Shown here: in pieces, positions 43,334-56,290 of the stretch
How positions within the stretch are numbered: position 1 is the first letter of the stretch
Layout: every line of letters starts with the position of its first letter
Source: a virus
Taxonomy: Duplodnaviria; Caudoviricetes
IMG/VR virus record: IMGVR_UViG_3300047382_000771
Coordinates: 136,095-200,094 of that record
Reading direction: 5' to 3' (one strand)
DNA length: 64,000 nt
Position numbers and translations under genes: made by a program
Notes under the pieces: generated by a model
Database searches by the model: none
What the model was told of the DNA's origin: nothing
The model's input: the letters and a program-made list of their open reading frames with translations, nothing else

Positions 43334-43642
43334 ATGAGAAAAGTAACACAACAAATCAAGGAAGCTTTCGAGCAAGGCAAATCTTTAAAAGTAGGTAATA
43401 CCAAGACAGACGGCAAGACTGTTTGGTTGCATGGCAACGCTATTGTTAAGCGTGATCCTGACGGGCTTGTCAGGTGGTCGCTTGCGGGATGGAATACCCC
43501 CACCACACGCGAACGCGTCAATGGTATAGCAAATGCAGGAGTTTGTCAATATAAATTCGAGCCTGTGTTAAATGGTCAAGAAATTGACTCATCCGATTGG
43601 TTCGCCTGTAATACCACATTGCCTGATCCTCTCATTTTCTAA
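43334..43642 (+). CDS. Early hypothetical protein
   Basis: 102-aa ORF (WLHGNAI...LAGWNTPTTRERVN) ending just before repeat 1. Confidence 0.75.
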   Translation: MRKVTQQIKEAFEQGKSLKVGNTKTDGKTVWLHGNAIVKRDPDGLVRWSLAGWNTPTTRERVNGIANAGVCQYKFEPVLNGQEIDSSDWFACNTTLPDPLIF

Positions 43643-43655
43643 CAAAAGCCTTACC

Positions 43656-43721
43656 TAAGTGCTTGACTATCAGGCACTTAGGCGGGCCCGCCCGCATAAG
43701 TCGTTGGTATTCAATGACTTA
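43656..43721. repeat. Double-palindrome element, copy 1
   Basis: TAAGTGCTTGACTATCAGGCACTTA + GGCGGGCCCGCCCGCA + TAAGTCGTTGGTATTCAATGACTTA. Confidence 0.95.
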
Positions 43722-43837
43722 TGAAACATCCGTACAAACATCGCGCCAATTCACATGGTCGGATAGTGCAATAAAATAGTTGCTAGATAATTGCGAATAA
43801 ATTTGACTTTAGCTATAATTTCCCTTAGTTTATATAT

Positions 43838-44188
43838 ATGAAATCATTATATAACACAGACACACAAGAATTCACTTTTAACTTTATCATGGGCATCGAT
43901 GGTACATCCTACCGAGTCGAAGCGGTAGCTTGTCAAGATGATATCCTATTGAATGATCAGTATCGCGCCGAATACATCGACGTTTACATGGCTAAATTGA
44001 CTGAGGAGAAAACAGGTGAATTGACCGAATCAAACACCTACAAGAACACAGATCTTTTAAAGGTTGTAAGCGATAAGCTCACAGAAAGGTTAATCACTAA
44101 TGCAAGCAAAACATGGTTTGTGACTGATGCGCCAAGACTTTTCCTTGAGCAATTGGACACTTGTTTAGAAATAATGTTTGATAAATAA
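43838..44188 (+). CDS. Early hypothetical protein
   Basis: 116 aa; TTGACT(43803)-17-TAGTTT-6-ATG. Confidence 0.75.
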   Translation: MKSLYNTDTQEFTFNFIMGIDGTSYRVEAVACQDDILLNDQYRAEYIDVYMAKLTEEKTGELTESNTYKNTDLLKVVSDKLTERLITNASKTWFVTDAPRLFLEQLDTCLEIMFDK

Positions 44189-44234
44189 TTGTTTTAGTGT
44201 TGACTCAAGCAAGCCGATAATCTACCTTATACAT

Positions 44235-44570
44235 ATGAATATAACAAATATAACATTCTCAAAAATCGATCACAAACTAATCACAGCACATCTATCCTTT
44301 GCTGATGCTAATCATGAGTATGGAACTATACGTGCCGAAGGTGTATCTCGCAAGCAGTGCATATATAACTTATGCAAGGAGGGCAAGTTGCCGTGGAAGT
44401 TGTTTGGCGCAGCTCGCGCGATGGCAATGCGTCACACCGACCCCAGGTTTCCCAGGGTTAGTAGTAGCAGAGAAGACGACAGACTCGCAGACATCTGCGA
44501 CGATCTGAATTGCTCGGTTAGTGAAGCTCGCCACTTTCAGGAGACAGGCGAACACCCCGTAAATTGGTAA
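44235..44570 (+). CDS. Early hypothetical protein
   Basis: Start re-assigned to MNITNI; TTGACT(44200)-17-TACCTT-6-ATG. Confidence 0.7.
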   Translation: MNITNITFSKIDHKLITAHLSFADANHEYGTIRAEGVSRKQCIYNLCKEGKLPWKLFGAARAMAMRHTDPRFPRVSSSREDDRLADICDDLNCSVSEARHFQETGEHPVNW

Positions 44571-44579
44571 AAGTTTGCC

Positions 44580-44645
44580 TAAGTGCTTGACTATCAGGCA
44601 CTTATGCGGGCCCGCCCGCGTAAGTCGTTGGTATTCAACGACTTA
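44580..44645. repeat. Double-palindrome element, copy 2
   Basis: TAAGTGCTTGACTATCAGGCACTTA + 16 nt GC spacer + TAAGTCGTTGGTATTCAACGACTTA. Confidence 0.95.
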
Positions 44646-44764
44646 TGTAAAAATCGCTATAACGCGGCTTTTAGCCCGTGTCAAGATTATTTGGTAAAAA
44701 ATAAATCACAATTAAACATCTTTTTTCTTGCTATGTATTAGTATATCCCTTATGTTGTATATAT

Positions 44765-45004
44765 ATGACAGATAATTACGATTCACTCGACCGCCTCGCT
44801 CACGCCTCAGGGATGACTGACCTTGAATATGAAGCTCAACAAAAAGAGCTTGCTCGCCTTGCTCGTTTCGACAAAATCATCGAAGACGTTAGGGACAGCG
44901 ATGAGCCTGCTGAAATGCCTGAGGTTCATCGCAACCATGAAGAGCCTAGCATAGACGCTTATGATGACTATGACTATGGCTACCATGACCAATACGAGCA
45001 ATAA
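44765..45004 (+). CDS. Early acidic hypothetical protein
   Basis: 79 aa; TTGCTA(44728)-17-TATGTT-8-ATG. Confidence 0.7.
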   Translation: MTDNYDSLDRLAHASGMTDLEYEAQQKELARLARFDKIIEDVRDSDEPAEMPEVHRNHEEPSIDAYDDYDYGYHDQYEQ

Positions 45005-45009
45005 GCTCG

Positions 45010-45076
45010 TAAGTCGTTGGTTATCAGCCCTTTATGCAGGGCGGCCCGCCATAAGCCGTTGAATACCAAGGACTTA
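45010..45076. repeat. Double-palindrome element, copy 3 (opposite orientation to copies 1-2)
   Basis: TAAGTCGTTGGTTATCAGCCCTTTA + TGCAGGGCGGCCCGCCA + TAAGCCGTTGAATACCAAGGACTTA. Confidence 0.95.
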
Positions 45077-45182
45077 TGTAAAAACTTCTATAGCGCGGGC
45101 TTAGTCCCGTGTCAAGATTATTTGATGGAAAATAAAACACAATTATGTTTGACATTCGCCCTCAAATATAGGATAGTAAGGT

Positions 45183-45371
45183 ATGACAAAAATTAAAGAA
45201 CCATTCAATAAAGGCGATGTTCTTATATCGCGCGACAATCAAATACTGCAATACCAGGGCGAGTTCAATCATCCCGAGCTTGGTCTAATAGCTGAAGTGC
45301 GTATCTATCGTACAGATCGCATAGTAGGCATTCGTTTCGAGGATGTAAAACTTCACCCGTTTTTCGCATGA
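45183..45371 (+). CDS. Early hypothetical protein
   Basis: 62 aa; TTGACA(45149)-17-GATAGT-5-ATG. Confidence 0.65.
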   Translation: MTKIKEPFNKGDVLISRDNQILQYQGEFNHPELGLIAEVRIYRTDRIVGIRFEDVKLHPFFA

Positions 45372-45583
45372 GTGAACGCGAACCATATCCTCAACTTGAC
45401 TGCGCTCTTGCTATGAGTAAGGCTCGTGGTAATCTTAACTTTCTTCTAAATAGAACAAAAGAAGAATGGAGCGAAACCTTTACTACGGCAGAAGCCATAA
45501 GGGATGCTCATGCCGCGCTTGACCAAGCTCAAAAAGAATACAAAAAAGTCTTGACTCTACTAACAAACTCTAATACATTGTAA
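45368..45583 (+). CDS. Early hypothetical protein
   Basis: 71 aa; ATGA overlap with the upstream gene. Confidence 0.65.
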   Translation: MSEREPYPQLDCALAMSKARGNLNFLLNRTKEEWSETFTTAEAIRDAHAALDQAQKEYKKVLTLLTNSNTL

Positions 45584-45587
45584 ACAT

Positions 45588-45773
45588 ATGATCTCAATCA
45601 AAAAAAATCAAAACTTCTCTAATTGGTTTCAAGTATTCGCTTTCGGTAAAATGATAGACGAATTCAGTCGCAGAAGCAAGGCGGTGCGTCGTGCTGAAGA
45701 ATTAGCGATACAAGCAAACCAAAAATACATCAATGTCGAAGGACTTGCACAAAAAATTAAATATGGCAACTAA
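45588..45773 (+). CDS. Early hypothetical protein
   Basis: 61 aa; TTGACT(45551)-17-TACATT-8-ATG. Confidence 0.65.
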   Translation: MISIKKNQNFSNWFQVFAFGKMIDEFSRRSKAVRRAEELAIQANQKYINVEGLAQKIKYGN

Positions 45774-45972
45774 AAAACTCGTACTCACCACAATATCCCA
45801 AGGCAAGATTGCCGTTGTAGAAAGTGCCGAAAGGGCAGATGACAAGAGGGGAGAAAGATACATAAGCGAAGATTGCTTGGCTGTCAATCTTAAAAACGGA
45901 GCGTTTACTGACATTACCGCAACAGGTGCAAACCCCGAAGGTAGATTGTATATGTTCACCGAAGATATGTAA
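45763..45972 (+). CDS. Early hypothetical protein
   Basis: Likely start MATKKL. Its TAA stop is the first three bases of repeat copy 4. Confidence 0.6.
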   Translation: MATKKLVLTTISQGKIAVVESAERADDKRGERYISEDCLAVNLKNGAFTDITATGANPEGRLYMFTEDM

Positions 45973-46036
45973 GTCGTTGATTATCAAGCCCTTAGGCGGG
46001 GCGGCCCGCCATAAGTCGTTGACTTACAGGGGTTTA
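45970..46036. repeat. Double-palindrome element, copy 4 (at the convergence of plus and minus early genes)
   Basis: TAAGTCGTTGATTATCAAGCCCTTA + GGCGGGGCGGCCCGCCA + TAAGTCGTTGACTTACAGGGGTTTA. Confidence 0.95.
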
Positions 46037-46041
46037 TGTAA

Positions 46042-46269
46042 TTAATCTTCCAAGAGCAACTCATCAAGTGCATTGATGTCAAGATCGGGATCGTTGTAGC
46101 TCGCCCCGTCAGGAGTCTGAAATGTTTCCATTTCTTCCAAACGATCTGCAAAATCAACATACCTCACACATCTGCGAGCTAACTTGTAAAGCAATTCGTC
46201 ATTAGATAACCAAAGTGCAACATTCCAAGTTGCCCAATTTTTCCATCCGTGATATGTTGTATCTGTCAT
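46042..46269 (-). CDS. Early hypothetical protein
   Basis: 75 aa; YHGWKNWATWNVALWL motif, which I recall from aquatic phages (not verified). Confidence 0.7.
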   Translation of the reverse strand: MTDTTYHGWKNWATWNVALWLSNDELLYKLARRCVRYVDFADRLEEMETFQTPDGASYNDPDLDINALDELLLED

Positions 46270-46271
46270 AA

Positions 46272-46475
46272 TTAACTTTCTTTAAATTCTTTTATAATTT
46301 GCTCCATTTGTGAAAGTACAGATTTTTTGTTTCCTTTGAATCCGTATTGTTCTTTAATGATTGAATATGCTGATTGACCTCTTCTCTTCATTCCGACGCA
46401 CTCCATTTTGAGAGCGGATCTGAGACTGAGAAATCGAAACATATCTTGTTTTTCGGGTGTGTCTAATGTAATCAT
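46272..46475 (-). CDS. Early hypothetical protein
   Basis: 67 aa; TTGACA-17-TAGATT-6-ATG. Confidence 0.7.
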   Translation of the reverse strand: MITLDTPEKQDMFRFLSLRSALKMECVGMKRRGQSAYSIIKEQYGFKGNKKSVLSQMEQIIKEFKES

Positions 46476-46506
46476 AATAATAATCTAGTTCAGTTTGTTT
46501 TGTTTG

Positions 46507-46746
46507 TCAAGCTACTTCAGCCAAATCCTTTGCCAATGCTTTTTCTGCATCCACCTGCTGTTGTAGTAAGTTGAGTTTGTTGAGTAAACCTTTGTAGCCG
46601 ATATAGTCGCCACGAAAGTGACCCTTCCAAACCCCGTCAACTCTTTGGAATGTAACATCCCAAGCAGATTTATAGTCATAAGTTCTTAGCAAGCCATTTG
46701 GCAAGCGCTCGAAGTAGAATTCTTTTCCGTTGTCTTTAATTGTCAT
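46507..46746 (-). CDS. Early hypothetical protein
   Basis: 79 aa; TTGCTA-17-TAGTGT-6-ATG. Confidence 0.7.
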   Translation of the reverse strand: MTIKDNGKEFYFERLPNGLLRTYDYKSAWDVTFQRVDGVWKGHFRGDYIGYKGLLNKLNLLQQQVDAEKALAKDLAEVA

Positions 46747-46811
46747 ACCAACACACTAAGGCATCTAACTAACTATAGCAAGAAAAAACTTCAATAAAAA
46801 AAAGATTGTTC

Positions 46812-46878
46812 TAAGTCGTTGAATGTTAACGGTTTACGCAAGGCGGCCCGCCGTAAGTCGTTGACTTACAGGGGCTTA
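46812..46878. repeat. Double-palindrome element, copy 5
   Basis: TAAGTCGTTGAATGTTAACGGTTTA + 17 nt GC spacer + TAAGTCGTTGACTTACAGGGGCTTA. Confidence 0.95.
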
Positions 46879-46883
46879 TGAAA

Positions 46884-47612
46884 TTAATGGGCTAAGTAAG
46901 CAATGCCTTTCTTGCATCCTTTGATGAAGCATAAGTTGCAATTATGGGCTTGACAAGTTGCAAGAATCTTGCCGTCCTCACCTTTAACATAAGTTGCGGG
47001 GCAAACAAAATGTCCGTCTTGCTCGGCTTGCTCTTTGCTAGTATAAACCGAAGTGCCTGCGTCAAGCCCGTCTACTTGAGGGGCTGGCTCGTCAACATAG
47101 ATTGCGCTCGGCTTAATGCAAACATTTTTAAGACTAGCTAACTTTTGCAAGTGTGGAAGTTGAGAGTCGCGTTTCCATTCTCTAGTTGGAAACCAAAATT
47201 TAATAGTTGGAAATTGCTCGCAAATTCTAACCCATGCAGAAATATACCTGGGGGAAAAGAGGTCGCCTGAATCATGAACGCGAAACAAATCCGTGTTTGT
47301 CTTTTTGAGTTTTTTCTTGTTGCCATGCTTGTCGAAATACTTTGCGCGAATTTGTTTGCACATTGCATTAACAAAAGTGTCTCCATTGTCTTGATGTAAA
47401 GACTTTGTAATGAGATCCGCCTTGCCTTGCAAGCTTGCCTTGACATTGGAAAACATATAAAAACCTTTGCAAGCATAGCAAGAATCGCAAATGAATTTCT
47501 TGCCCGCTTCTTTAATCTTTGCTAATAGCTGCGCGGCAGGGCAATACTTGAAAGCAGGAATGTTGAACGAATAGCAAGGCATCTTGCTCGGGTTGGATAA
47601 TAAGTTAATCAT
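46884..47612 (-). CDS. Gp88-like protein (Cys-rich, radical-SAM-related fold)
   Basis: SKMPCYSFNIPA..CP...CDSCYA...FRVHDSGD...KFWFPTRE...C..HNCNLC; TTGTGT-17-TAATGT-6-ATG. Confidence 0.75.
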   Translation of the reverse strand: MINLLSNPSKMPCYSFNIPAFKYCPAAQLLAKIKEAGKKFICDSCYACKGFYMFSNVKASLQGKADLITKSLHQDNGDTFVNAMCKQIRAKYFDKHGNKKKLKKTNTDLFRVHDSGDLFSPRYISAWVRICEQFPTIKFWFPTREWKRDSQLPHLQKLASLKNVCIKPSAIYVDEPAPQVDGLDAGTSVYTSKEQAEQDGHFVCPATYVKGEDGKILATCQAHNCNLCFIKGCKKGIAYLAH

Positions 47613-47677
47613 AAGAATACATTACCACCGAACTTAACTAAACACAAGAAAAAAGTGAATTAAAATAAAAGTTGTCA

Positions 47678-47744
47678 TAAGTCCTTGGTAGTCAAGCACT
47701 TACGCGGGGCCGCCCGCCATAAGCCGTTGAGTATCAACGACTTA
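47678..47744. repeat. Double-palindrome element, copy 6
   Basis: TAAGTCCTTGGTAGTCAAGCACTTA + CGCGGGGCCGCCCGCCA + TAAGCCGTTGAGTATCAACGACTTA. Confidence 0.95.
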
Positions 47745-47896
47745 CGGGGTTTCTTATCCGCGTCCCGCTAAAAGGGTGAGTTCTTATTTACCTGAACTCT
47801 ATTTCGTCCCTGTCGCTGAACATACATTCAAACATAAGAAAGAAAGCAAAAAAGGTTGGCATGAGAAAGAATAAATAAACAAAAAATTCTAATATA

Positions 47897-48172
47897 CTAT
47901 CCATTGTAGACTCCTTTCATTTGGTCAGATATACCTAAGCCCATGAAGTTGTCTTCTTCGTCAATGTCTTCGGCATTTGGGGAATGCTTTAACAATGAGG
48001 ACTCATCTTCAATGTCTGACTTTTGCGCGTCTAGTAAACCATGCTCGCCCAAAACCTCTTGAGACTTAATCTCTGAGACGAAATCCTCAAGGGAAGTTTT
48101 AAGACCAAGACCCTTGGAGTCTTGGACGGCGTGCTTAATGATGGCGATTCTTTGATCTTCTGTTAATGTCAT
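47897..48172 (-). CDS. Early hypothetical protein
   Basis: 91 aa; TTGACT-17-TACCTT-6-ATG. Confidence 0.7.
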   Translation of the reverse strand: MTLTEDQRIAIIKHAVQDSKGLGLKTSLEDFVSEIKSQEVLGEHGLLDAQKSDIEDESSLLKHSPNAEDIDEEDNFMGLGISDQMKGVYNG

Positions 48173-48193
48173 AATAATAAGGTAATCTAGTTT

Positions 48194-48538
48194 TTAGTGA
48201 GAGTCAACAAGTTTTTGATTAAAGTCTGCCCGTATTGCTACAAGCAAATCTTCGTGAGCTTTGCCGTCCATCTCAAATTGATGCATAAGAGAAGTAATTC
48301 TGTGTGGCTCTTGCCAACCTAGCACATCATCAGAGACAGATAAAGGAACCCAACTTCCGTCGGGATTAAATACTGCAACTTCAAAAGTATCGGGATAACG
48401 ACCATAAAATGGCTCAAATGCTCCCTCATTTTTACCCGCAATAACTGAAAAAGAATATCCGTTGTCAAGTGTGAGCGATGCCATCCATCTTCTCATGGAT
48501 TCATCGTAAGTGAATTTTAAATCATCGAATGTTTTCAT
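48194..48538 (-). CDS. Early hypothetical protein
   Basis: 114 aa (NGYSFSVI...YG...FEVAVF...DDVLGW). Confidence 0.75.
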   Translation of the reverse strand: MKTFDDLKFTYDESMRRWMASLTLDNGYSFSVIAGKNEGAFEPFYGRYPDTFEVAVFNPDGSWVPLSVSDDVLGWQEPHRITSLMHQFEMDGKAHEDLLVAIRADFNQKLVDSH

Positions 48539-48574
48539 ATAATAATATATATACTATTGGTTATTGTCTGTCAA

Positions 48575-48781
48575 CTAAAACTTTAGCGCTTGAATGGAAG
48601 TATTCTCTCTGCACCATTTTCTTAATGGATGATGAGCCTTTGGACTCAAGTGAGTCAAATACTGCTTCCCATTAGTTGCCATAAGCATATAGCCTTTGGC
48701 GGTTGCGCGGATGTCTTTGATTTCTGGACATTTACGCAATTGCTTTAGTATCTTTAAGTTTCCGCTATCTCTGTGTTTCAT
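48575..48781 (-). CDS. Early basic hypothetical protein
   Basis: 68 aa; TTGCTG-17-TAATGT-6-ATG. Confidence 0.7.
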   Translation of the reverse strand: MKHRDSGNLKILKQLRKCPEIKDIRATAKGYMLMATNGKQYLTHLSPKAHHPLRKWCRENTSIQALKF

Positions 48782-48847
48782 ACTACTACATTAAGACGGA
48801 TAGCAAGTGACAGCAAGAAAAAAAGTGTTTTTTTTTACTTAGCTACA

Positions 48848-48914
48848 TAAGTCGTTGGTTATCAAGCATTTATGCGGGGCGGCCCGCCGTAAGTCGTTGA
48901 ATATCAACAACTTA
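48848..48914. repeat. Double-palindrome element, copy 7
   Basis: TAAGTCGTTGGTTATCAAGCATTTA + TGCGGGGCGGCCCGCCG + TAAGTCGTTGAATATCAACAACTTA. Confidence 0.95.
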
Positions 48915-48932
48915 TGAAATAAATCAGCCCAC

Positions 48933-48960
48933 AAAAAAGCCCCTCCGTTTGGAGGGGCTT
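48933..48960 (-). terminator. Rho-independent terminator after the DUF932-like gene
   Basis: Minus strand reads AAGCCCCTCC-AAAC-GGAGGGGCTT-TTTT. Confidence 0.85.
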
Positions 48961-48982
48961 TCTATATTTGTCAAGCTTTTAT

Positions 48983-49846
48983 TTAAGCTTCGACTAATTC
49001 ACCTTCAACTACCTCCATATCGAGAACATTTTCGACATGGTTTTTAATATCAAAGTTGACCTCGCCATCAAGAACGGAGTGCAAGGCATCCGAGCGATTA
49101 GGTAAGGCAACTAAGTTTCCTTTATACACCTCAGTAAAAGCATTGTAAAGAGAATTTACATTGCGATCCCAAAATTCGGGGTGATCGGAAGACTCCCATT
49201 GATTGACAACATCCATGATTTTAGACTTAGGCAAAGCACCTGCCTTGCAAGCCCTAATCACAAGATCGTTAGCATGGGAATTTGAAAGATCAAAATCTTT
49301 ATAGGCATTGATGCGATTGTCTTGACCATTCCAAAAGCCAAACAATTTGCCCAATGCACGATTGATAGTAAAATCAAGATCTTGCAAAATGTTGCGAGTG
49401 TGGCGACGCGCTAATTTAATAGTATTGGTAAAAATAAGATTATCGCACACAAAGGGAGCATCACCTGCACACAATCCCGCAGGAAATGTTTTGTCGTGAG
49501 AGTTGCGAAGACCAACTACACAACCACGATCACTAGCCTTACGATTAGGGTGATCGACTGAAAATAAACCAAAATAGTGGTTATCGTTGCGAGCAAGAGA
49601 GTGAACCTCATCTTGAATGGTGAAGCCATTGGTTTCCAAAAAACCTTTGGTGCGATGCACTAATGCCTCATGGGCGATAGGCTGATAAGAGACGGCTCTT
49701 TCGCCATTGGCATTTTCTTTCTTGCGATACTCTACGGGCGGAGTAGGAACCCCGACTACTTGATCGAAATCTACAAGAGTACGATTGCCTCCGCAGATAT
49801 GAAGATTAACTTTGGGTGAGTTGTTGGTATTTTCTGTAGTATTCAT
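48983..49846 (-). CDS. DUF932-like protein
   Basis: YQPIAHEALV...YFGLF...GLRNSHDKTFPAGLCAG..PFVCDNL. Confidence 0.7.
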   Translation of the reverse strand: MNTTENTNNSPKVNLHICGGNRTLVDFDQVVGVPTPPVEYRKKENANGERAVSYQPIAHEALVHRTKGFLETNGFTIQDEVHSLARNDNHYFGLFSVDHPNRKASDRGCVVGLRNSHDKTFPAGLCAGDAPFVCDNLIFTNTIKLARRHTRNILQDLDFTINRALGKLFGFWNGQDNRINAYKDFDLSNSHANDLVIRACKAGALPKSKIMDVVNQWESSDHPEFWDRNVNSLYNAFTEVYKGNLVALPNRSDALHSVLDGEVNFDIKNHVENVLDMEVVEGELVEA

Positions 49847-49884
49847 AATAGTGATAATATAGTAGTGATTGTTTTTGTCAATAG

Positions 49885-50118
49885 TTAATTTTTATAAACT
49901 TGAGATAGTTGATCGTAGGCATAAGCTTTTTCAGCGATACTACCGAATACCTCTTTTAATAAAGAGTAGCCTAGTAAATCCCTAGCATCTAAATCTGCCT
50001 TGTCAATAATATTGACTTCTAATAATTCAGTCGCTGTATCCATTGCTTGTATGGAATCTAAATTACTAAAGTCGATTTCTGTGTCGCCTTCGTTGTGTGA
50101 GTTAGGTATATAATACAT
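49885..50118 (-). CDS. Early acidic hypothetical protein
   Basis: 77-aa ORF. Confidence 0.6.
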   Translation of the reverse strand: MYYIPNSHNEGDTEIDFSNLDSIQAMDTATELLEVNIIDKADLDARDLLGYSLLKEVFGSIAEKAYAYDQLSQVYKN

Positions 50119-50227
50119 AATTTTTCTTGTGTTTAACTTTGCGGTCTAAGACTTTGTTTCTCATTTTGAATGCTCTTGCCTTAGTGAAAAGGATTGGCTT
50201 TCTTACTTTTACTTCTCTTGCTTTCAT
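50102..50227 (-). CDS. Small basic peptide (41 aa)
   Basis: Start re-assigned to MKAREV; TTGCTA-17-TACTAT-6-ATG. Confidence 0.6.
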   Translation of the reverse strand: MKAREVKVRKPILFTKARAFKMRNKVLDRKVKHKKNYVLYT

Positions 50228-50293
50228 ATAAGTATAGTAAGCTATAAAAGTAATTATAGCAAGAAAAAAGTTAAGTAAATTGGCATTTTGTTG

Positions 50294-50360
50294 TAAGTCG
50301 TTGAATATCAACGAGTTGCGCGGGGCAGGCCGACCTAACCCCTTGATAACCAAGGAGTTA
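50294..50360. repeat. Double-palindrome element, copy 8 (most diverged)
   Basis: TAAGTCGTTGAATATCAACGAGTTG + CGCGGGGCAGGCCGACC + TAACCCCTTGATAACCAAGGAGTTA. Confidence 0.9.
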
Positions 50361-50377
50361 GGCCTTTTAACTACTAA

Positions 50378-50548
50378 CTAAGCTGTAATGTGGCGAGTTC
50401 TTTTCTCCGCCCTATAGAGTTGATATAATAAATCCTGGTGGGACCTTTTTAAGGTGAAGTACTCGGGGGTGTTTTCCCCGTATATTTCTCTGACCGCTAA
50501 TTGGTACCCAAGTTTACGAATGTTTTCTCTGAGAGTTTTAATTTGCAT
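50378..50548 (-). CDS. Small hypothetical protein (56 aa; below the ORF-track cutoff)
   Basis: My translation: MQIKTLRENIRKLGYQLAVREIYGENTPEYF...RHITA. Confidence 0.55.
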   Translation of the reverse strand: MQIKTLRENIRKLGYQLAVREIYGENTPEYFTLKRSHQDLLYQLYRAEKRTRHITA

Positions 50549-50553
50549 TTTTT

Positions 50554-50787
50554 TTATCCTTTGTTAAGTGAGATTATACGATCATAACGAAAGGAGCGAA
50601 CAGCTCCCCTGTTGAAGCAGTAGCTCCTGAAGCCCGCAACAGCGAGACCTTCTTTGACATTACCGAACTCATTTTTGTGTTTCGGCTTTGTGATAGTGTA
50701 CATCTGCGTTTTACCGTCTTTAGTATTGTAAACAACACTGTATACGGGGAGTAATAACTTAAGCAACTTCAATAACATTTTCTTCAT
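50554..50787 (-). CDS. Early hypothetical protein
   Basis: 77-aa ORF ending RSFRYDRIISL (WYL-like ending, unverified). Confidence 0.6.
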   Translation of the reverse strand: MKKMLLKLLKLLLPVYSVVYNTKDGKTQMYTITKPKHKNEFGNVKEGLAVAGFRSYCFNRGAVRSFRYDRIISLNKG

Positions 50788-51013
50788 GTTGATCCTTTCT
50801 TACGGGGTTTAAGTTGTAGTGATTGTAAGCATCAGTCACTTCCTGTGCTGATTCGAAACTTACAGAAATTAAATCTCTCTCTTGGCTTGGATGCCATGGT
50901 GTCTCTGATTCCTCAAAGAATAGTAACCAAAGTTCTGATTCCTCGTCCCATTCGGGCAAACCCAAAGGCTTCCCGATACAAGTTGCTTCTATGTAATTGT
51001 TCATGATTATCAT
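50759..51013 (-). CDS. Early acidic hypothetical protein
   Basis: 84-aa ORF with TTGACA just upstream. Confidence 0.6.
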   Translation of the reverse strand: MIIMNNYIEATCIGKPLGLPEWDEESELWLLFFEESETPWHPSQERDLISVSFESAQEVTDAYNHYNLNPVRKDQHEENVIEVA

Positions 51014-51048
51014 AATGTACTACTTAGTTGTTGGTGTCAACTCCTTAA

Positions 51049-51270
51049 TTAACAAGGAATTGGTGAATCTTCTTCTGTTTCAATGGTAATGCAAAAGTGG
51101 CTTGCGAGCTCCTTGATCATTACATCATTATTGAAATAATTATAAGCAAAAGTTAAAAGTTGCTCTTGCTCTTCCCCTGTATGGCCGTCTCTGAGTTCGT
51201 CATATATCTCAAAGATATTCATATTCCAATTCCATCCCTCTACTCTTGATTCTATCTGTGATTTTGTCAT
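51049..51270 (-). CDS. Early acidic hypothetical protein
   Basis: 73-aa ORF; AAGGAA upstream. Confidence 0.6.
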   Translation of the reverse strand: MTKSQIESRVEGWNWNMNIFEIYDELRDGHTGEEQEQLLTFAYNYFNNDVMIKELASHFCITIETEEDSPIPC

Positions 51271-51283
51271 AATGTTCCTTGTG

Positions 51284-51517
51284 TTATAGTTGTGCTGATT
51301 GAAAAGATGATTCTATCCTAATCTCGTTTTGTAGTGATGTCAAACTCAAAATGATATCTTCCAAGGTTTCTTCGGCAGACATTATAGTCGCACCAAGTGG
51401 AAACTTTTCAGGATGACGCTCGTGTTGTTGAAGACATACCTTGGACATTGGATCTGCCCACGCAAGTTCTCCTCGAACTATGTTTAAGATTTCTTCTCTA
51501 ATTTTACTTTGCGTCAT
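51284..51517 (-). CDS. Early hypothetical protein
   Basis: 77-aa ORF. Confidence 0.6.
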   Translation of the reverse strand: MTQSKIREEILNIVRGELAWADPMSKVCLQQHERHPEKFPLGATIMSAEETLEDIILSLTSLQNEIRIESSFQSAQL

Positions 51518-51677
51518 TTTTTGCCCTTTCGTTTAGATTGTCCGCTATCTTTGCAAGACGAAGAATTTCCGCTTGAACAAACTTTTTAGCTTGTGGTTCT
51601 GCTTTTGGGTTCTTCAGCACCTCGATCATTGGAAGAATGAGCGCTGACCATTTAGGTGTTACATCAATCGTTTTCAT
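51504..51677 (-). CDS. Small hypothetical protein (57 aa; below the ORF-track cutoff)
   Basis: My translation: MKTIDVTPKWSALILPMIEVLKNP...; TTGACA-17-CATACT-7-ATG. Confidence 0.55.
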   Translation of the reverse strand: MKTIDVTPKWSALILPMIEVLKNPKAEPQAKKFVQAEILRLAKIADNLNERAKNDAK

Positions 51678-51818
51678 GTTTTACAGTATGCTTTAATTCT
51701 TGGATGGTGTCAAATATAATTTTATGAATTTCATCAGTAAATTCGATTGGAGCACCCGCGTCTGATAAGTAATCACGAACTCTATCTTGAAGTTTTACTT
51801 GTAATTTGTGTATTGGAT

Positions 51819-52025
51819 TCATCTGTGCAAAGCTACCCTCACTTCATTCTCATGTTTTTTTTGTTCAACTAAATCTTTTAAGTCAAAGCTAATACTGCAG
51901 AGAGTACTACTGATATTCTCCATCACCTTGACGAGATCCCCCATGTTTGCGTGTCTACGATTTTCTAACATCTCGTCAGCGACTCCGTCAATGGCGGTTT
52001 TAATTGCATATAATTCTTCTTTCAT
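51819..52025 (-). CDS. Early hypothetical protein
   Basis: 68-aa ORF in a tightly packed run. Confidence 0.55.
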   Translation of the reverse strand: MKEELYAIKTAIDGVADEMLENRRHANMGDLVKVMENISSTLCSISFDLKDLVEQKKHENEVRVALHR

Positions 52026-52223
52026 TTAGCTATACTTTACTCCTTCTAATTCTGATTGCAACCATAAAATGGCTTTTTGTCTGATGTCACAGTGTGAGAC
52101 TTCAGTAAATACATTGTCATTGACTCGAAGATAAAGATCGTTTCCGTTCTTTTTTTCTGTCTCTAAGTCGTTTGCTTCATACCACTTTTGGGCATAATCT
52201 ATCATTCTTTGTTCGTGGCTCAT
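52026..52223 (-). CDS. Early hypothetical protein
   Basis: 65-aa ORF in a tightly packed run. Confidence 0.55.
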   Translation of the reverse strand: MSHEQRMIDYAQKWYEANDLETEKKNGNDLYLRVNDNVFTEVSHCDIRQKAILWLQSELEGVKYS

Positions 52224-52346
52224 TTTAATCCTCGCTGTTTATGAAAGCATTGTATAATTTTATTAAATCTGCATCAGATCCATGCTCAATGATGCTCATT
52301 AGATAATCAACTATGTCTGATTGTGATAAGTTTTGTGTTTCTTTAC

Positions 52347-52748
52347 TCATGGTATGTAGGCGGTTACTTGGTTGTGTGATAATAAAACTTCATCTGCGTA
52401 GTATACAAACTTTTCGGTGTTCTTGTCAACAAAAGTCTCATACTTGTATGGATTATATGTTACCTGGGTAGCGGGTCTGTCGGTGTTTACATTCTCAGCA
52501 TCCTGAAGGTAACCCTTGACAAATGCGTGAACATTCTTCTTCTTTTCACGAAGAACTTTTTCTCTACCCTTGATATCAACATGAAAGTAGCAATCCCACA
52601 AACCAATAGAATGATCCTTTGGGATGTGAGCCTTAACTAACCCGTGTTGCTTGACTGACCAGCAGTCCTTGTGGAGATTCTTGTATACATAAACAGGTCG
52701 ATTGGACTTGAGAATGTATCTTGGGTCTTGTTGGTTTCTCTTAATCAT
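52347..52748 (-). CDS. Conserved-looking phage hypothetical protein
   Basis: VYKNLHKDCWSV...GREKVLREKKKNVHAFVKG...VTYNPYKY; TTGCGT-17-TATTGT-6-ATG. Confidence 0.75.
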   Translation of the reverse strand: MIKRNQQDPRYILKSNRPVYVYKNLHKDCWSVKQHGLVKAHIPKDHSIGLWDCYFHVDIKGREKVLREKKKNVHAFVKGYLQDAENVNTDRPATQVTYNPYKYETFVDKNTEKFVYYADEVLLSHNQVTAYIP

Positions 52749-52814
52749 ATAACCACAATAGTCTACTTAGGCAGTTGACGCAAGAAAAAAGTGAAATTAA
52801 TTTCAATGTTGTCG

Positions 52815-52881
52815 TAAGTTGTTGTTTACCAAGCACTTACGCGGGGCGGCCCGCCATAACTCGTTGACTATCAAGCACTTA
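52815..52881. repeat. Double-palindrome element, copy 9
   Basis: TAAGTTGTTGTTTACCAAGCACTTA + CGCGGGGCGGCCCGCCA + TAACTCGTTGACTATCAAGCACTTA. Confidence 0.95.
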
Positions 52882-53451: not shown

Positions 53452-53922
53452 AGGGATGGGGGACGTGAGCTTTCGCTCGAAATAGATGTGGGACAGGAAT
53501 ACTGAATACCTGCAACTTTCGGTGTGAACATCAGTTCATTGGTTATCCTACTTGTACTACAATTGAATTGGACATTCTACCTCAGACATTTGTCCATTGG
53601 CACTCCACCACAGAGAATCATATACCTTACCTCGCACACAAAGAGGTCTTCGGTCACCCACAGGGAGGATTATAAGCCCTCCCAAAGAGAATCACGAAGG
53701 AGAAACAAAACTGACAACTCTGCTTGGCGCCTTCTTTGCAGGGGTTCGTCAACCAATGTCATATCAAGTTTCTGCTTAGCGAGCAGTCTTCAATCAGTAC
53801 GGAGATGTAAGATTGTAAGTACTGAAGCTAAAACTTCGTAAAATTATTTAAAATGTAAAAGATCGAAAAGTCTGGGGTTATTTTATTTGATTGAGTTACC
53901 CCTTCTCAATTATGGAGAATAT
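53411..53922 (-). ncRNA. Candidate large structured non-coding RNA (about 510 nt)
   Basis: TTGACA-17-TACTAT promoter (53957-53929) with ATA rather than ATG at +1. Many local hairpins, one long-range helix, and a terminator at the 3' end. Confidence 0.55.
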
Positions 53923-54702: not shown

Positions 54703-55099
54703 AAGGGGATACTAAGGGATATTCTGTGTTGTGTCAACTATCTTTTTGATATTAATTAAAATTTTGGGGCACGCTCGCATAAATTACTGATGAGCAAATA
54801 CTTGTGAATCAAATTGGAAACAAGCGGGGCAATAGGTCTTCCTCCATATGGGGTTGTCGGCGCGACAAAATGGACAAATTTTTCCTCCAATTATTTGAGA
54901 CTTCGGTGCGCAACTAGAAAGTAAGCAAGTTATTATTAAGTATTTTATAAAATTTTTCATTCAATTATTTATAATGCCAAACAAATCGAGTGTTCAATGA
55001 AGGCACAAAACCCCAGTAACAAAGGGTAAAACAACCTCGTCCGATAACATCTATCGACTCTATGCCTCGATTTATTATTTGGCAAAAATTTATTTACAA

Positions 55100-55405
55100 T
55101 TATTTGGGCTTATTCTGTTCCTGTTCTACTATTAATTGATCCTGTATTACATCATTCACATAGTATATGTTGTCGAATAACCCTTTGGCTCTCTTTCCAT
55201 TATTTGTAATTTTATTTAATTCAGTAAAAATTCTGTCCAACATATCATCCACTACCTTATTTGCCTCTTCTACATCCACCTTCTGCCCTGTCTTGATGTT
55301 TGTTATTTGGGCATCTGCGTTTATATTTTCGAGCATCCTGTTCATTTCTGACTTGATGGACAAGATTTCATCTAACTTGATATTAATTTCTTTTGCTAAA
55401 CTCAT
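55100..55405 (-). CDS. Hypothetical protein
   Basis: 101 aa; TTTACA-17-TATACT-9-ATG. Confidence 0.6.
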   Translation of the reverse strand: MSLAKEINIKLDEILSIKSEMNRMLENINADAQITNIKTGQKVDVEEANKVVDDMLDRIFTELNKITNNGKRAKGLFDNIYYVNDVIQDQLIVEQEQNKPK

Positions 55406-55571
55406 AATAGAAGCAGTATATTAAATTATTTGGCGTTTGTAAAGTATAAAATTTATTATTTATTGCCCCGATTATTGTATTAAAATTTTTATTTAATTAT
55501 TTGGGGCTTTCTATTTACAATTATATATTTATCTTATTTAAGTTATATTCAAAAAGTGGGCGGTTTTATTC

Positions 55572-55814
55572 TTATTTAAATTTTTTATGATTAAATGGGG
55601 GCAATAATAATATTAAATTATTTGGCTCATCTCTATTTATAGGCATAACATCCAAGAACGGATAGACTTCTTCTTTACTCAAGTCAGTCCAACATATGTC
55701 ATCCAAGACATGGGAGCAAGCCTTTGAGGGGTCAAGAAGACTACCTAGAATGTGTGCGTATCCACTCTCGATGCAATCTTCTACGTGCTTTATGCTTGCT
55801 TCTTGTAAATTCAT
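55572..55814 (-). CDS. Hypothetical protein
   Basis: 80 aa; TTGACT-17-TATTTT-6-ATG. Confidence 0.6.
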   Translation of the reverse strand: MNLQEASIKHVEDCIESGYAHILGSLLDPSKACSHVLDDICWTDLSKEEVYPFLDVMPINRDEPNNLILLLPPFNHKKFK

Positions 55815-56290
55815 AAAACTAAAATAAGTTATTATTTATTAAAAGTCAATACATAAAACTAAACAAATTTAAAGTAAAACAAAATCAATTAAAATTTATT
55901 AAAATTAACTCGGCTTGTTTTTATTATGTTTTTGACTTAGTTCAGTTGGAAAGCCAAATTTATTATACATAATATTATCTTCAGTTATTTCGGGCTTATT
56001 GTCTGATTTTTTTTGTTTAATTGCTTTGCTATCTTTGCCTTGCTTTATATTTAAGTATTTTTTTTTGCTAATTATATTCATTTAATTTGATAAAATATTT
56101 TAAAGAATTAAGTTCGCCACACCACTTCAACCCACTTCAACCCACAATACTCCATCAATAATCGGCTGAATCCCTTTATTTAAAGGCATTTTATTTAAAT
56201 TATAAAAAATAACATTCATCTTATATTAAGTATATTGTATTTATATTGATTAGTATATATGTATTGTATCAAATTATGTTACTAATTATA

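Follow-up and report, generated by a model that had tools for sequence, protein, structure and literature searches.

The locus and its elements

The early gene region of an uncultured marine tailed phage (Caudoviricetes), held in IMG/VR as virus record IMGVR_UViG_3300047382_000771, is punctuated by nine copies of a tripartite DNA element, each consisting of two 25-bp imperfect palindromic arms that flank a GC core of 16–17 bp. The window analyzed here is the last 64 kb of this 200,094-bp record, which CheckV rates as complete. A note made earlier from the letters of the window alone, hereafter the original prediction, had claimed nine copies with these arms and GC cores, and all nine stand exactly where it placed them, giving 18 arms in total. 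A search of the window for TAAG-N3-TTG-N5-CAA-N3-CTTA with at most two mismatches returns 19 matches, namely, the 18 arms and one stray site, against 0.65 ± 0.86 matches to the same pattern in dinucleotide shuffles, none of 100 of which reaches 19. A hidden Markov model (HMM) of the arm (nhmmer --max) recovers the 18 element arms from the window and nothing else, and three weak extra matches only from the whole 200,094-bp genome. The nine elements are real, nonrandom, and restricted to 9.3 kb of the 200-kb genome.

The starts of the two arms are 41 bp apart in copies 1–2 and 42 bp apart in copies 3–9, and the core of each copy can form a hairpin of 4–6 bp with a 4-nt loop. Core orientation inverts between copies 2 and 3, as had been predicted. 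The variable arm centre, given as N5 by the original prediction, is in fact N3, positions 11 and 15 being a conserved A and T, and the palindrome reaches outward to CG...CG, which produces a 13-3-13 layout.

Copies 1 and 2 lie on the plus strand and are 93% identical. Copy 1 (43656–43721; arms 43656–43680 and 43697–43721, core 43681–43696) starts 14 nt past the stop of the open reading frame (ORF) at 43334–43642 (+), has its core flipped relative to copies 3–9, and is followed approximately 80 nt downstream by the promoter of the gene at 43838. Copy 2 (44580–44645; arms 44580–44604 and 44621–44645) begins 10 nt past a stop at 44570 and precedes a promoter at 44728 (ATG at 44765). The other seven copies are on the minus strand. 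Copy 3 (45010–45076; arms 45010–45034 and 45052–45076) is located 6 nt past the stop at 45004 and is the sole copy whose polarity opposes that of the downstream (+) gene. Copy 4 (45970–46036; arms 45970–45994 and 46012–46036) exactly fills the gap between two convergent genes: its first three bases are the TAA stop of ORF 45733–45972 (+), and ORF 46042–46269 (−) ends 6 nt beyond its second arm. Copy 5 (46812–46878; arms 46812–46836 and 46854–46878) lies 6 nt 3′ of the stop of a GP88-family gene (46884–47612, −) and is succeeded on the minus strand by a T-tract and then a promoter at 46781–46753, with its ATG at 46746. Copy 6 (47678–47744; arms 47678–47702 and 47720–47744) has a −35 box at 47647–47642, 30 nt beyond the arm, and an ATG at 47612. 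Copy 7 (48848–48914; arms 48848–48872 and 48890–48914) is flanked by a canonical terminator (approximately 48930–48962) and a promoter with its −35 box at 48816–48811. Copy 8 (50294–50360; arms 50294–50318 and 50336–50360), the most diverged, has a −35 box at 50262–50257, 31 nt beyond the arm, and an orthologous copy in the related contig L068. Copy 9 (52815–52881; arms 52815–52839 and 52857–52881) is followed by a −35 box at 52783–52778, which serves the ATG at 52748 of an L5-gp82-like gene.

Boundaries between transcription units

Seven of the nine elements in the window start 0–15 nt after a stop codon, and eight are positioned upstream of sigma-70-type promoters (TTGnnn, 17-bp spacer, TAnnnT) that finish 6–8 nt before an ATG; thirteen such early promoter sites are listed between 43803 and 52783. 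With promoters ending 6, sometimes 7–8, nt before the ATG and no Shine-Dalgarno motif, the early mRNAs should be leaderless, judging from this spacing. Across the genome, where ORFs were called naively, a Shine-Dalgarno-like motif is found at only 23% of large ORFs (10% background). The promoter module at 46747–46811 (−) may serve as an example: a T6 tract is followed by the −35 box TTGCTA, a 17-bp spacer, the −10 box TAGTGT, 6 nt, and the ATG. The same module occurs at 47613–47677, 48782–48847, 50228–50293, and 52749–52814, next to copies 6–9, such that in copies 5–9 the element, T6 tract, and promoter constitute one repeated module of approximately 135 nt, in which the nearer arm centre lies approximately 80 nt upstream of the start. 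The original prediction had noted that the switch in element orientation does not coincide with the switch in gene direction. That remark rests on a single copy; eight copies have a promoter downstream, and the polarity of seven of them tracks its direction, copy 3 being the exception.

Between the gene at 48983–49846 and copy 7 stands a canonical intrinsic terminator, a GC hairpin with a T run (48926–48965, −). Canonical terminators also occur between gene and element in relatives, so that the element cannot simply be equated with a terminator. The ORFs of the array mostly lack a Pfam match. They include two proteins, one DUF932-like at a level short of the Pfam cut-off (48983–49846, −) and the other L5-gp82-like (52347–52748, −), the genes of which are the commonest early genes beside arrays in relatives (16 and 17 loci, respectively). 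Taken with this placement, the nine copies are probably boundary modules of an early, hyperplastic gene region. The predicted array of cassettes bounded by the element is borne out, with the added feature that the cassettes bear promoters.

A family of arms in uncultured phages

The element is not confined to this phage. An exact-pattern scan of IMG/VR yielded at least 120 stretches, many with several arms in doublets, and arms collected by HMM number at least 471 (451 unique) in 111 viral loci, the collection having been gathered by patterns and by an HMM that those patterns seeded. Family-wide, the consensus reads CG-TAAGTCGTTGA-nWn-TCAACGACTTA-CG, with information peaks at TAA, TTGA, TCAA, and TTA and values near zero immediately outside the arm. 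Doublets fall into spacing classes of 41/42, 47–53 (mode 50), and 58 bp. Many of the loci come from the same terminase clade; several are similar at the nucleotide level to the terminase region of this phage, and others have early genes in common with it at 55–98% protein identity. On these similarities, the array is an ancestral trait of a group of related uncultured 100–200 kb phages.

The gene context of the window recurs in the family. Among 160 doublets, 114 are co-directional with their flanking genes, 30 convergent, and 16 divergent; the distance from stop to element is at most 12 nt in a quarter of cases, and that from element to start at least 52 nt in 90%. Promoter-like sites are enriched 2.5-fold in element flanks family-wide and peak 30–39 nt from the element, a modest peak that appears only with a looser promoter pattern. 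A fixed distance between the arm and a TTGAC −35 box does not hold generally across the family, and weaker −35 boxes in element-linked promoters, although true of the window, are not a family-wide feature (35% vs. 45% TTGAC).

The phage or close variants of it are present in seawater metagenome runs from 18 studies. No cultured relative was found in the phage collection, and no cultured phage yielded near-identical DNA. When one element was used for a distant search, matches were at chance level only, that in Colwellia phage 9A being a single imperfect site, and no Rfam covariance model matches any element at E ≤ 1. The best matches of the large terminase subunit, TerL, are approximately 23–25% identical, to Clostridium and Bacillus phages, with none T4-like, and rIIA is only approximately 28% identical to T4-like rIIA. 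Literature searches for the word common to the arms returned primers and a terminator table of the phage DLP6, and nothing else.

The perfect palindrome also occurs at 45 loci of bacterial genomes from many phyla, in a scan run without a control pattern. Most of these are unrelated single hairpins with nonhomologous stem extensions, located beside tRNAs or T runs. We read these matches as a sampling of the very large pool of terminator hairpins rather than as a sign of a universal factor. Two repeat families are also represented: the perfect 25-bp palindrome is the centre of a multi-copy repeat resembling miniature inverted-repeat transposable elements (MITEs) in two Treponema metagenome-assembled genomes (L139, L143, L147, and others), and it lies inside a repeat of more than 140 bp that occurs at least seven times in the Verrucomicrobiae chromosome OX638380.1.

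A polar word with and without its palindrome

The two halves of an arm are not equivalent. In copies 3–9, the minus-strand half CAACGACTTA is nearly invariant and its partner half is degenerate, and across the family the arms of a doublet tend to share polarity (r = 0.35). The relative L244, a 203-kb contig with early genes in common with this phage, carries single sites in which an A/T-rich half takes the place of the palindromic partner; these sites retain the TGA-N3-TCAACGACTTA half approximately 28 nt upstream of a −35 box. In the cultured Stenotrophomonas phage DLP6, approximately 15 pairs of direct ATCAACGACTTA repeats are spaced exactly 25 bp apart, on the forward strand in 28 instances and on the reverse in 4, and the pairs follow stop codons and are succeeded by a sigma-70-like promoter with, optionally, a GC terminator in between. 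Since the word persists without its palindrome in L244 and as direct repeats in DLP6, the functional unit appears to be a polar word of 12–13 nt, (W)ATCAACGACTTA(YG). This phage has the word on both strands of each arm, which creates the palindrome, and two arms in each element.

Could such a word be a phage-specific activator box or promoter, recognized either by an RNA polymerase that the phage has modified or by a sigma factor of the phage's own? Its polarity is suggestive, given that it points to downstream genes in DLP6, in L244, and in seven of eight copies here. The DLP6 genome paper annotates 25 "phage promoters" predicted with PHIRE, 22 of them paired ahead of gene clusters (Peters et al., 2017, PMC5349666). 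The PHIRE call, however, is the output of a repeat finder, and the complete sigma-70-type promoters with 17-bp spacers that stand downstream of the elements, 6–8 nt before the ATG, argue that the word is not a core promoter. Furthermore, copy 4 has no downstream gene, and the palindromic form would fire both ways, into gene ends. Overall, we regard a promoter or activator box as quite improbable.

Perfect direct doublets of the word are found in 57 other viral contigs, some of which have three or four copies at 21–22 bp spacing. Contigs L216, L188, L218, and approximately 30 similar ones carry iteron-like arrays of this kind (three or four direct TATCAACGACTTA copies, 21–22 bp apart), each located in the long intergenic stretch that separates divergent genes on small viral contigs (GC 46–49%); no initiator gene was identified among their neighbours. 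Such arrays count in favour of the word as an iteron of an initiator, and related proposals would make the elements fork barriers or stop signals for stepwise injection of the genome. The layout in this phage is of another kind, with one site at each transcription-unit boundary over 9 kb rather than a cluster by an AT-rich unwinding region, and no initiator gene is associated with the sites. Nothing observed points to stepwise DNA entry or to a decoy function, both of which the original prediction had raised. A replication or entry site is, in our estimate, very improbable. In L206 and approximately 12 near-identical contigs, three copies of the word surround a small hairpin directly after the genes for a CHASE2-adenylate cyclase and a FecR-like protein; this type of site may be the edge of an integrated element.

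Conservation of sequence and of pairing

Elements that follow stop codons so closely invite an explanation at the level of RNA, in which the transcribed triple hairpin, or one long hairpin, would act as a terminator or as a REP-like 3′-end stabilizer of the upstream early mRNA. All nine copies indeed fold very stably as RNA relative to shuffles, on either strand (z = −1.6 to −7.3), which also counts against the arms being protein sites. In addition to the seven elements that start directly after stops, one copy fills a convergent gap, and convergent doublets outnumber divergent ones in the family by 30 to 16. In the 58-bp spacing class, the core is a clean hairpin with a UUCG, GAAG, GUAG, or UACG loop, and a T4 run beside the core, as in the subfamily with UUCG and GAAG loops, is oriented with transcription: of 114 co-directional elements, 17 have it downstream of the core with respect to transcription, as against 1 with the run on the other side.

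The pattern of substitutions speaks otherwise. Across 405 unique arms from 111 loci, none of the 12 stem pairs is Watson–Crick more often than in column shuffles, which ignore phylogeny (|z| ≤ 2). Pairing is retained in only 47–77% of arms at the variable positions, mismatches reach 31–53% at positions 4/22 and 7/19, which is the frequency expected by chance, and variants in the two arm halves assort independently. A single long hairpin, formed by pairing of arm 1 with arm 2, was rejected as well, for the two arms show no complementary covariation and share the same variants in direct orientation. The predicted RNA fold itself alternates from copy to copy between three hairpins and one long hairpin, and such fold switching is the expected by-product of two conserved half-sites. 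As for the core, the constant property of 133 unique family sequences is a GC content of 83%, with a hairpin potential that family-wide barely exceeds that of shuffles (mean z = −0.49). The cores of this phage are GC hairpins that lack a U run, and canonical terminators adjoin several elements. Taken together with the word that survives without a pairing partner in L244 and DLP6, these findings make action at the RNA level unlikely.

The lack of covariation within and between arms, combined with the word that occurs without its palindrome in L244 and DLP6, indicates that selection acts on half-site sequence and not on pairing. Hairpins and cruciforms thus do not appear to be what selection preserves, and the proposal that the elements are extrudable cruciforms, selected for symmetry rather than sequence, is contradicted: sequence is conserved, and the word outlives its partner. 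The companion proposal of paired sites for a dimeric protein fares better than the structural readings, in that symmetry is kept in the absence of compensatory covariation. On this comparative evidence, it is reasonably likely that the arms are protein sites rather than hairpins.

Candidate binding proteins

The word is an exact instance of the consensus of the integration host factor, IHF, WATCAANNNNTTR (PMC9452768); this consensus is that of Escherichia coli. Arm information mirrors the consensus, being high at TCAA and TTA and lower over the four bases between. A perfect WATCAANNNNTTR is present in 246 of 451 arms (55%), usually on one strand only, and arm positions 12 and 14 are anticorrelated (z = −2.9). 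Ten of the 34 perfect consensus matches of the genome fall inside the 9.3-kb array, and the sites of L244 have an A/T-rich 5′ half, as is often seen beside IHF sites.

The phage encodes no HU/IHF-family protein (PF00216) anywhere in its genome. By BLAST, the proteins that it has in common with DLP6 are RNR, PhoH, an S74 chaperone domain, and one spurious antisense ORF, with no DNA-binding protein among them, and neither Pfam nor PHROGs reveals a DNA-binding domain in the 30 ORFs of and beside the array. As no phage-encoded binder is common to the two phages and no array ORF has a DNA-binding domain, a host factor is favoured, and a conserved one would be the simplest binder. A host bending protein of the IHF/HU type is the leading candidate, although IHF itself can be proposed only tentatively. 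The E. coli consensus leaves the conservation of CGAC, at its NNNN positions, and of the flanking CG unexplained, and two overlapping inverted IHF sites cannot be occupied simultaneously. Moreover, the scarcity of Shine-Dalgarno motifs is a pattern of hosts such as Bacteroidota or cyanobacteria. To our knowledge, neither of these groups has a canonical IHF. If the binder is nonetheless the host's IHF, the word would also carry a clue to which hosts the marine clade infects.

A dedicated DNA-binding factor other than IHF, encoded by host or phage, is a comparably tentative proposal. The word would then punctuate early transcription units across unrelated phage lineages, namely, the abundant 100–200 kb marine clade, DLP6-like phages, and small mobile elements with iteron-like arrays. 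If so, phage early regions would have a shared boundary code, of which the palindromic double form would be a bidirectional insulator.

Cassette flux and recombination

The genes between elements are in flux. Gene families occur in different orders and units among the related contigs L068, L040, L088, and L115. Where copy 7 stands, L068 carries a further two cassettes of one gene apiece, both with an element of their own; the unit that lies between copies 5 and 6 is missing from L115; and homology with L068 starts exactly at 47678, the first base of copy 6. Of 30 ends of homology blocks, eight come within 30 nt of an element, where 11% would be expected (p =.014). The gain, loss, and reordering of cassettes that the original prediction had anticipated in related phages are in evidence, with breakpoints enriched at elements.

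Repeated composite palindromes that bound cassettes of differing content in close relatives bring to mind a mobile element or site-specific recombination site (REPIN/RAYT, attC, MITE), whose spread would have created the array. In line with this, contigs from seawater runs have many joints at elements between different copies. Most of these joints, however, have short sides and possibly reflect cross-alignment of repeat copies, which makes them ambiguous evidence. The original prediction had noted no integrase or transposase in the window, and this absence extends to the whole 200-kb genome, which has no Y1/HUH transposase (PF01797) and no tyrosine (PF00589) or serine recombinase. All copies fall within one 9-kb region, hairpin-preserving evolution is not seen in the arms, and the cassettes have their own promoters, unlike integron cassettes. 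A mobile element or site-specific recombination site is, in sum, very improbable. Given the absence of a recombinase from the genome, general recombination between repeated modules is the likely route of cassette exchange, by analogy with other phages.

A probable boundary module and a proposed architectural protein

From these observations we infer a module in which each arm would be a double-stranded DNA recognition site for a sequence-specific architectural, or bending, protein, and the 83%-GC core either a terminator-type hairpin or merely a stretch that resists melting. The module would run in the order gene end, (terminator), element, UP-like tract, promoter, and leaderless gene, thereby ending one early transcription unit and beginning the next. 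Bound and sharply bent, the DNA would insulate neighbouring strong promoters from each other and possibly aid the downstream promoter. The recurring module, approximately 70–140 bp in length, would in addition provide a patch of homology through which general recombination could add, delete, and reorder cassettes, much as proposed for the promoter-early stem-loops (PeSLs) of T4-type phages. Taken as a whole, and leaving aside the identity of the protein as IHF, this explanation by boundary module, protein site, and shuffling has about an even chance of being correct.

Several observations weigh against it. Arm spacing varies across its three classes (41/42, 47–53, and 58 bp), and helical phasing is therefore not conserved. 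The collection of arms was seeded from patterns, such that the fixed positions are partly ascertained, and the shuffles take no account of phylogeny. The enrichment of breakpoints is modest, with 22 of 30 block ends elsewhere. Lastly, of 141 leaderless-type promoters counted in the arrays of relatives, 115 have no element nearby, which means that a promoter can work without one.

Relation to known systems

Phages of the T4 type carry PeSLs, for which homologous recombination has been proposed (Arbiol et al., 2010, PMC2839356; Comeau et al., 2014, PMC4122927). Like these, the elements described here combine a stem-loop or terminator with a sigma-70-type early promoter, are repeated between the small ORFans of a hyperplastic region, and are linked to indels and replacements between close relatives. 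Unlike them, they occur in a phage that is not T4-type (TerL approximately 23% identical to Clostridium and Bacillus phages), they are tripartite, with two strongly conserved palindromes of 25–29 bp in place of the stem-loop, and the genes of their array are leaderless. Whereas the stem-loops of PeSLs are short and differ between phage pairs, the arms are conserved across the clade.

A second parallel is with the BIME-1, RIB, and RIP elements of E. coli, reportedly pairs of REP sequences with a central IHF site at the 3′ ends of transcription units, in work credited to Boccard and Prentki in 1993 and to Oppenheim and colleagues in the same year. Both are extragenic mosaics of palindromes with an IHF-consensus site after gene ends, and both are candidate topological or transcriptional boundaries; a BIME has been described as a supercoil barrier (PMC6907758). 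The layout here is inverted, in that the palindromic arms are built of the IHF-like words and the centre is GC-rich. In contrast to BIMEs, the elements reside in phage DNA as nine copies in one region, with no RAYT and no sequence similarity to REP.

The motifs of DLP6 share the identical 12-nt word ATCAACGACTTA, paired, after stop codons, and ahead of gene clusters. They differ in layout, with direct repeats 25 bp apart where the elements have two palindromes 41–58 bp apart, and in that the GC hairpin follows both copies of the word instead of lying between them. The DLP6 lineage is unrelated to this phage, only RNR, PhoH, and an S74 domain being common to the two, and the function assigned to the DLP6 motifs is a software prediction.

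Early promoters of phages that are stimulated by IHF include lambda pL and Mu Pe. The elements resemble these in their apparent arrangement, in which a site of the IHF-consensus type is followed by an A/T-rich UP-like tract and then a sigma-70 promoter, and differ in that the sites are doubled and palindromic and that most early promoters of the array lack them.

By these comparisons, the elements are most likely boundary modules akin to PeSLs and BIMEs that belong to neither family, the phage not being T4-type and RAYT and stem covariation both being absent. Among the analogues named by the original prediction, PeSL and BIME are apt; membership in the REPIN or attC families is not upheld, there being no RAYT (PF01797), no PF00589 recombinase, and no stem covariation. 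The novelty lies in the word itself, which is conserved and widely distributed, and in its palindromic doubling on either side of a GC core.

Implications and neighbouring features

More than 100 contigs of uncultured phages carry elements of this family. If the arms bind an insulating, bending protein, they would offer a handle on immediate-early expression from leaderless mRNAs in large uncultured marine phages, a mechanism by which small early genes are rapidly exchanged, and a sequence tag for finding such early regions in metagenomes. Small early phage genes are often anti-defence or host-takeover genes. The presence of the same word in the cultured phage DLP6 opens the hypothesis to bench testing.

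Other features of the window lie within or near the array. A 107-nt repeat with a small GC hairpin follows copies 2 and 3 (44648–44714 and 45079–45145), and a noncoding gap of 150 nt after copy 6 (47747–47896) is conserved in part in both L068 and L115. Immediately past the final element, a full-length match to the manA RNA motif (RF01745) extends over 53483–53683 (−), with a score of 61.8 bits against a gathering threshold of 55.2 (E = 5e-14), in a region that is conserved in L040. Further on, an AT-rich stretch at 54876–55993 contains approximately eight copies of a different repeat, characterized by AATTATTTGR, which may represent another class of promoter or regulatory site.

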